From Shigella phage sb1, in sequence record PQ666539: 64,000 bases of DNA. The stretch is one strand, 5' to 3'. The notes beneath the pieces were generated by a model, which made no database searches, had not been told where the DNA came from, and saw only the letters and a list, made by a program, of their open reading frames with translations. The position numbers were made by a program, and so were the translations under genes. Position 1 is the first letter of the stretch. Each line of letters starts with the position of its first letter. Positions 54,540 through 55,655 of the stretch are shown one piece after another.

Positions 54540-55655
54540 ATGGAAAAATTTATGGCAGAGTTTGGACAAGGATATGTCCAAACTCCATTTTTATCGGAAA
54601 GCAATTCAGTAAGATATAAAATAAGTATAGCGGGTTCTTGCCCGCTTTCTACTGCAGGTCCATATGTTAAATTTCAGGATAATCCCGTTGGAAACCAAAC
54701 ATTTAGTGCGGGTCTTCATTTAAGAGTTTTTGACCCTTCTACAGGAGCATTAGTTGATAGTAAGTCATATGCTTTTTCTGCTTCAAACAATACAGCATCT
54801 GCCGCTTTTGTCAGTTTTATGAATTCTTTGTCAAACAACAGACTTGTTGCTATATTAACTAGCGGAAAGGTTAATTTTCCTCCTGAAGTAGTATCTTGGC
54901 TAAGAGCTGCAGGAACATCTGCTTTTCCATCTGATTCTGTACTGTCAAGATTTGACGTATCATATGCTGCTTTTTACACTTCTTCTAAAAGAGCTATTGC
55001 ATTAGAGCATGTTAAACTAAGTAATATAAAAATCACAGATGATTATCAAACTATTTTAGATGTTGTATTTGACAGTTTAGAGGACGTCGGAGCTACGGGA
55101 TTTCCTAAAAGAACATATGAAAGTGTCGAGCAATTTATGTCAGCTATTGGTGGAACTAACAACTAAATTGCGCGATTACCAACTTCATCTGCTATAAGTA
55201 AACTATCTGATTATAATTTAATTCCTGGTGACGTTCTTTATCTTAAAGCACATTTATATGCTGATGCTGATTTACTTGATCTTGGAACTACAAATATATC
55301 TATCCGTTTTTATAATGCATTAAATGGATATATTTCTTCAACACAGGCTGAGTTTACTGGGCAAGCTGAGTCATGGGAATTAAAGGAAGATTATGTAGTT
55401 GTTCCTGAAAATGCAGTCGGATTTACTATATATGCGCAGAGAACTGCTCAAGCTGGTCAAGGCGGACTGAGGAATTTAAGCTTTTCTGAAGTATCAAGAA
55501 ATGGTGGCATTTCAAAACCTGCCGAATTTGGCGTCAATGGCATTCGTGTTAATTATATCTGTGAATCGGCTTCACCTCCAGATATAATGGTACTTCCTAC
55601 GCAAGCCTCTTCTAAAACTGGCAAAGTGTTTGGGCAAGAATTTAGAGAAGTTTAA
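54540..55655 (+). pseudogene. 35: long tail fibre hinge protein gp35, interrupted by in-frame TAA at 55164..55166
   Basis: 372 codons in one frame match T4 gp35; TNN-stop-IARLPTS where T4 has TNNEIARLPTS. Confidence 0.85.

Follow-up and report, generated by a model that had tools for sequence, protein, structure and literature searches.

A premature TAA in gene 35 of a T4-like phage sequence very probably belongs to a window-wide layer of unselected G:C-to-T:A changes

The DNA analysed here (the window; a stretch of 64 kb, positions 1..64000) is a segment of a T4-like (Tequatrovirus) genome and is ~95-97% identical to the nearest GenBank phages. Gene 35, which encodes the proximal connector (hinge) of the long tail fibre, occupies 371 codons of the plus strand at 54540-55655. 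Its codons 1-208 (54540..55163) are identified by the ORF, by similarity to gp35 and by the position between gene 34 and genes 36-37-38. Codon 209 (55164-55166) is an in-frame TAA; direct reading of 55158-55172 gives AAC AAC TAA ATT GCG, in the wider context GGT GGA ACT AAC AAC TAA ATT GCG CGA, and the program-made ORF list closes the ORF at 54540..55166. Translation of 54540-55658 reads MEKFMAEF...SAIGGTNN, stop, IARLPTSSAISKLSDY...QEFREV, stop, where codon 209 is the sole internal stop. Codons 210-371 and the conserved terminal TAA (55653-55655) follow in frame at 55167..55655 and are 94-97% identical to the relatives. Residues 58-125 of the predicted gp35 (window 54711-54914) match Pfam family PF15711 (ILEI, interleukin-like EMT inducer/FAM3-type domain) with E=1.6e-8 and 35.4 bits (cut-off 27 bits), and no Pfam family was matched by the C-terminal 162 residues.

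The 1119-nt gene 35 stretch matches 520 phage records, nearly all of them Tequatrovirus from Escherichia, Shigella and Yersinia, with a best identity of 96.5%, and the matches are annotated as long tail fiber protein proximal connector or gp35. The predicted gp35 shares 94% amino-acid identity with T4 gp35 (NP_049861) over 371/372 residues and 94-97% with other Tequatrovirus gp35 proteins, and the gene order 34-35-36-37-38-t is that of T4, pSs-1, KNP5, UGKSEcP2 and YwIITB1. The window gene resembles T4 gene 35 in full-length identity and gene order; its length of 371 codons is shared with the non-T4 Tequatrovirus orthologues. The homologous codon is GAA in all five aligned GenBank relatives (AAC GAA ATT vs AAC TAA ATT in the window), and Glu is the homologous residue in T4 gp35 and in 6/6 close relatives from IMG/VR, while of four relatives at 41-46% identity three have it; in total, just one of the 15 relatives checked besides T4 lacks a Glu at the position of codon 209. 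Three statements of the sequence-only reading are borne out by these data, namely that gene 35 is interrupted by a TAA at 55164-55166 (sequence, translation and ORF list), that the frame beyond it runs on to 55655 (translation of 54540-55658) and that T4 has a Glu at this position (alignment with T4 gp35, and with the GAA of the five GenBank relatives).

The TAA is caused by one G>T at 55164, which converts GAA to TAA (Glu to stop) and is private to the window. We define a private change as one where all three references (YwIITB1, pSs-1 and KNP5) agree and the tested genome differs; 62,825 positions were covered. Gene 35 holds four further private G>T changes, one of which is synonymous (54584, codon 15) and three of which are missense (55027..55253, plus strand): R163I at 55027, S165I at 55033 and Q238H at 55253. 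All three alter residues that are conserved among the close relatives; at Q238, even the relatives at 41-46% identity show hardly any variation. Whereas T4 gp35 is read from one uninterrupted frame and has Glu (GAA) at codon 209, the window gene is broken by TAA at this codon and carries R163I, S165I and Q238H in addition.

Searches for sequences sharing the interruption returned none. In the GenBank phage search for closer relatives that share the stops, a 91-nt query around the TAA retrieved a single record, at 93.4% identity, and no record matched the exact TAA stretch. Exact 32-mers over the site, in both the TAA and the GAA version, had 0 matches in the viral contig collection, the 32-mer with TAA had 0 matches among metagenome contigs and genome contigs, complete E. 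coli genomes gave no megablast match, and the 208-aa truncated gp35 product was absent from the protein position index. By segment, the best GenBank identity was 96.5% for gene 35, 95.3% for 40000-64000 and 97.3% for 37500-44000, and none of the phage records in the GenBank collection was closer than ~97% over any segment tried.

All annotated proteins of the closest full-length reference (PQ356294, YwIITB1) were searched against the 64-kb window in a survey of premature stops. Twenty-nine in-frame stops were found, 28 of which are private to the window and spread over 20 genes, and 27 of these 28 are G>T or C>A. The same survey detected no frameshift in any window gene, splits between frames occurring only where the reference annotation is itself broken. 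On the plus strand, gene 34, encoding the proximal long tail fibre subunit (50662..54531), has four private TAA codons and visibly broken ORFs; one of the four is TCA>TAA (51772-51774) and three are GAA>TAA (51841-51843, 52702-52704 and 54211-54213). In gene 36, a TCA>TAA (C>A) at 56285..56287 closes the ORF 55718..56287 at 189 aa, vs 218 aa in pSs-1. Further plus-strand stops lie in the genes for gp22 (5097-5099 and 5367-5369), uvsW.1 (14130-14132), gp51 (16664-16666), gp27 (17689-17691, a TGA, and 18130-18132), gp29 (18952-18954, a TGA) and gp48 (20739-20741), where the names of the head and baseplate genes are taken from the pSs-1 and YwIITB1 annotation. The gene of the major capsid protein gp23 is split by TTA>TAA at 6672-6674, the result of a T>A at 6673 and the sole private stop that is not G>T or C>A. 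On the minus strand, stops are found in uvsY (15196-15198), three hypothetical genes (22641-22643, 30391-30393 and 34742-34744), an alt-like gene (an alt paralogue; 24504-24506, a TAG), a spanin-like gene (38072-38074), alc (38251-38253 and 38437-38439, both TAG), the RNA ligase 1 gene (39293-39295 and 39446-39448, the latter a TGA), nrdA and gp32 (48265-48267). In nrdA, the adjacent codons GAA GAA, present in all three references, have become TAA TAA (43452-43454 and 43455-43457) by two plus-strand C>A changes 3 nt apart.

In the same part of the window, nrdB (40332-41510, 392 aa) and td (44384-45256, 290 aa) are single uninterrupted ORFs. T4 carries group I introns in both genes; because each is one uninterrupted ORF here, the phage appears to be without T4-type group I introns in nrdB and td. 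Between asiA and motA (61600-62960), the window shows mosaic divergence from all three references, with reference proteins that align in split frames or at 83-90%. Compared with the YwIITB1 annotation, this region has an additional in-frame stop at ~61983-61985, where the reference residue is Gln. The divergence of the asiA-motA region looks like natural variability combined with inconsistent annotation, and not like the G>T changes described here.

The distribution of the stops bears on whether gene 35 has suffered a genuine ochre mutation or pseudogenisation, for example as a gene in decay or in a conditional-lethal mutant of the tail fibre. A fresh nonsense mutation would be expected to look like this, with one base altered in a conserved Glu codon and the gene otherwise intact, and T4 amber and ochre conditional-lethal mutants likewise have a single-base change from sense to stop in an essential late gene. 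Such mutants, however, are wild-type apart from one chosen nonsense codon or a few, whereas the window has 28 stops of three types together with ~225 missense changes of the same class. The 27 other private stops fall in 19 other genes, including those for the major capsid protein, the scaffold, baseplate hub proteins and gp32, and the 225 missense changes added by the same class show no signal of selection (see below). T4 genetics has established that gp22, gp23, gp27, gp29, gp48, gp51, gp32 and gp34-36 are needed for viable progeny and plaques; by this general knowledge, a phage lacking all these functions would be unable to form plaques. A genuine mutation of gene 35 is therefore highly improbable.

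We then compared the private substitutions of the window with those of the three references, each of which was put through the same test as a control. The window has 1103 private changes, among them 154 C>A and 151 G>T (sum 305), vs 30 and 35 (sum 65) among 731 in YwIITB1, 8 and 17 (sum 25) among 487 in pSs-1, and 27 and 21 (sum 48) among 545 in KNP5. Transitions and the other substitution classes occur in the window in numbers comparable to the controls, and the excess is confined to C>A/G>T, as it is in artefacts of the OxoG type. The 305 changes amount to ~1.3% of all G:C pairs of the window. The natural share of this class, scaled from the transitions, is ~40-75, which leaves an excess of ~230-265 or ~1.1% of G:C pairs. 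The quality of the references in this clade is uneven: YwIITB1 (PQ356294.1, Ec_YwIITB1), in which the major capsid protein and hoc are each annotated in two pieces (6348-7909 and 10896-12325), also has the highest G>T/C>A count of the controls (65).

The coding effects of the private changes separate this class from the remainder. If G>T/C>A struck coding G/C sites at random, 79.4% of the changes would be missense, 8.9% synonymous and 11.7% nonsense. We observed 225 missense, 35 synonymous and 27 nonsense, the last against 33.6 expected (P for as few or fewer, 0.13) or ~25-29 when the natural background is subtracted, with 108, 103 and 76 changes at codon positions 1, 2 and 3, respectively. 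The private transitions of the window, in contrast, comprise 117 missense, 447 synonymous and 0 nonsense changes (12.6 nonsense expected, P=3e-6), so that 79% are synonymous vs a neutral expectation of 33%, and the other transversions comprise 94 missense, 101 synonymous and 1 nonsense (10.0 expected, P=4e-4). Because the effects of G>T/C>A match the neutral expectation while the transitions are strongly filtered, the window is an ordinary, selection-shaped T4-like genome overlaid by a class-specific layer that selection has not seen; the absence of such filtering is a second property that the layer has in common with OxoG-type artefacts. Having never been screened by selection, the layer is not part of a replicating phage lineage.

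Within this layer the stop of gene 35 is unexceptional. Fifty G/C sites of gene 35 are stop-prone, a G>T or C>A there being enough to produce a stop. Since the excess rate of ~1.07% per G:C site predicts 0.54 stops in the gene, with P(>=1) of ~0.42, an in-frame stop in this conserved 371-codon gene, which would not be a matter of chance in a clean genome, is attributable to chance in this window. We conclude that the TAA very probably belongs to some 250 extra, random and unselected G:C-to-T:A changes over 64 kb, a layer of error or damage that is not related to the biology of gene 35. The sequence-only reading had presented the interruption as an event of one gene and had hinted at an error at the level of the reads. 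The interruption itself stands, but its restriction to gene 35 does not, the TAA being one of 28 private stops in 20 genes, 27 of which belong to one unselected class; likewise, the hint pointed in the right direction but treated as a single-gene matter what extends over the window.

The layer occupies all sixteen 4-kb bins of the window, with 11-31 events per bin. Its rate is 1.33% on the coding strand and 1.36% on the template strand (P=0.86), and it does not differ between plus and minus strand. Runs of G>T vs C>A, which would be a sign of single-read or single-strand origin, were not found (146 runs vs 153.5 expected, z=-0.86), a comparison of low power for short reads with events ~205 nt apart. 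Spacing is slightly clustered (coefficient of variation 1.24; 30 gaps of <=10 nt vs 14 expected), which we tentatively attribute to heterogeneity of G+C and to mosaic segments. The influence of trinucleotide context is weak: rates range from 0.4% to 2.1% over the 16 contexts (chi-square P=0.04) and reveal no motif. The OxoG artefact of Costello et al. 2013 reportedly prefers CCG>CAG; in the window, CGG is not an enriched context, its rate of 1.2% being no different from the mean.

These properties were weighed against two rival origins of the layer. Errors of an unpolished nanopore or PacBio consensus could be envisaged, as the changes fall on G:C pairs only and every C of T-even DNA bears a heavy modification, glucosyl-hydroxymethylcytosine, which may have provoked the errors. 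Such errors are mostly indels, yet 0 genes of the window are frameshifted, and modification miscalls are strongly context-dependent, in contrast to the 0.4%-2.1% without a motif seen here over the 16 contexts. This origin is unlikely, and its frameshift-rich form was dismissed, as there is no frameshifted gene in the window. The second origin is a burst of guanine-specific mutagenesis in vivo, by oxidation, a host deficient in MutY/MutM or a host factor directed at the guanines of the phage, the sequence being a faithful copy of a dead or complemented molecule. The G:C>T:A-specific, strand-symmetric and unselected pattern would also fit a damaged molecule copied once in vivo, and by sequence alone this is indistinguishable from damage in vitro. 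However, a population consensus would show ~250 private lethal and missense changes only if it derived from a single molecule, and there is no strand asymmetry relative to transcription; we regard such a burst as very unlikely. In a stricter form of this proposal, host anti-phage activity or an oxidative burst would have converted ~1% of G in vivo to a lesion that templates T in a real DNA molecule that was copied once, giving a dead, hypermutated T4-like genome for which APOBEC-hypermutated retroviruses are the comparison; this we consider extremely improbable.

The predominance of one stop codon and one replaced residue could suggest that TAA is read as Glu, through an alternative code, a suppressor tRNA or programmed readthrough, and that gene 35 is translated in full: of the 27 stops made by G>T or C>A, 18 replace Glu and 21 are TAA. 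In the window, 2506 coding sites are such that G>T or C>A makes a stop, and these sites lie in GAA (1211), GGA (407), TCA (372), GAG (194), TAC (175), TCG (79) and TGC (68) codons. The residues replaced by the 27 stops follow this composition, with Glu 18 (15.1 expected), Gly 3 (4.4), Ser 4 (4.9) and Tyr 2 (1.9), as do the stop types, with TAA 21 (18.9), TGA 3 (5.1) and TAG 3 (2.9). Inclusion of the T>A stop of gp23, which replaces a Leu, brings the private stops to 28 (Glu 18, Gly 3, Ser 4, Tyr 2, Leu 1) and TAA to 22. The seeming equivalence of TAA and Glu is the product of codon usage and mutation class.

The terminators of the window genes bear on the same question. Eighty-two genes end at the conserved position, i.e. 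at the codon next after the last aligned residue of the reference protein, with 56 TAA, 23 TGA and 3 TAG, the terminal TAA of gene 35 being one of the 56. ARAGORN found no tRNA gene in the 64-kb window, although the T4-type tRNA cluster lies outside it. At the site of the stop, the relatives at 95-97% identity have GAA, and their genetic code is the standard one. In stop-recoded phages, such as some crAss-like and Lak phages with TAG or TGA reassignment, one codon is reassigned and avoided as a terminator, and a suppressor tRNA is usually encoded. The window resembles these phages in having many in-frame stops within conserved genes. Unlike them, it has three types of internal stop with no single consistent replaced residue, it retains TAA as its main terminator (56/82), and no tRNA gene was found in it. 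Because the stop types follow codon usage and the genes keep their conserved terminators, with no tRNA gene in the 64 kb covered, recoding and suppression are all but ruled out, as is a designed mutant, and the probability that TAA is read as Glu in gene 35 is negligible.

Loss of a conserved stop was considered at two gene ends and set aside. At the end of gene 51, which overlaps the start of gene 27 (17108-17113), the conserved TAA has become CAA (T>C) and TGA is the next codon; the product is one residue longer, the overlapping ATG of gene 27 is intact, and the change looks like a harmless natural variant. The second stop-loss is in a naturally divergent mosaic segment.

As to how the layer came about, we infer that the changes were most likely added to the DNA or to the data after the last replication of the phage under selection. 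Oxidised guanine is the textbook source of G:C>T:A changes, as 8-oxoG templates A. Its presence in the template DNA would be the likeliest source, the damaged template having been copied into the consensus from very few molecules or reads, or an equivalent substitution-only error process having operated. By such a process a single G>T would have turned the conserved GAA (Glu) of gene 35 into TAA. The stage concerned could be the extracted DNA, library construction, amplification or data processing, and the origin of the substitutions could also be purely computational. While our confidence is high that the layer is unselected noise and not biology of gene 35, it is moderate as regards the specific chemical cause.

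C>A/G>T transversions due to oxidation of DNA during shearing in library preparation are a documented artefact, present in a low percentage of reads only (PMC3616734). This artefact and the layer of the window are alike in consisting of G>T/C>A only, in showing no purifying selection and in having both orientations equally frequent in the final sequence; they differ in that the artefact has a low allelic fraction in deep data, whereas the changes of the window are in the consensus and depend weakly on context. The flat sequence context is atypical for the published OxoG artefact. Since an oxidation artefact normally affects few reads, its entry into the consensus requires very low depth or a severe bottleneck of template. 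With a library derived from few damaged template molecules, all reads might show TAA and the change could still be an artefact.

Two other substitution classes were inspected in this connection. Depurination followed by incorporation according to the polymerase A-rule was rejected as the source, as it would also add A>T; there is no clear excess of A>T/T>A, and with 70 synonymous vs 37 missense changes this class has the look of selection. Private A>C/T>G changes number 74 vs ~46 expected from the controls (40 missense, 27 synonymous), a weak signal of a modest possible excess, which may share the oxidative signature since incorporation of 8-oxo-dGTP yields A:T>C:G.

The chief value of these results concerns data quality. 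Annotation of the window would yield ~20 pseudogenes or split genes, including those of the major capsid protein, gp32 and the tail-fibre genes 34-36, and recoding, ochre mutants or gene decay might be inferred from the sequence; none of these is supported. Apart from the stops, nearly every protein of the window is affected by the ~225 private missense changes of the G>T/C>A class, including the host-range-relevant tail-fibre proteins gp34-gp37, at ~1 spurious substitution per 90 codons, and the sequence should be corrected before proteins deduced from the window are put to comparative or structural use. The procedure used here is reusable and can be applied in the absence of reads: lineage-private substitutions are sorted by class, and the nonsense, missense and synonymous changes of each class are compared with its neutral expectation.

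What merits reporting is the window-wide signature of mutation or error, rather than any pseudogene, ochre mutant or recoding in gene 35. We judge the broken reading frame of gene 35 to be a product of the error layer and not a property of the phage; an interrupted gene 35 is not a real biological feature of this phage, which almost certainly has GAA at the site and makes a full-length gp35 of 371 residues.
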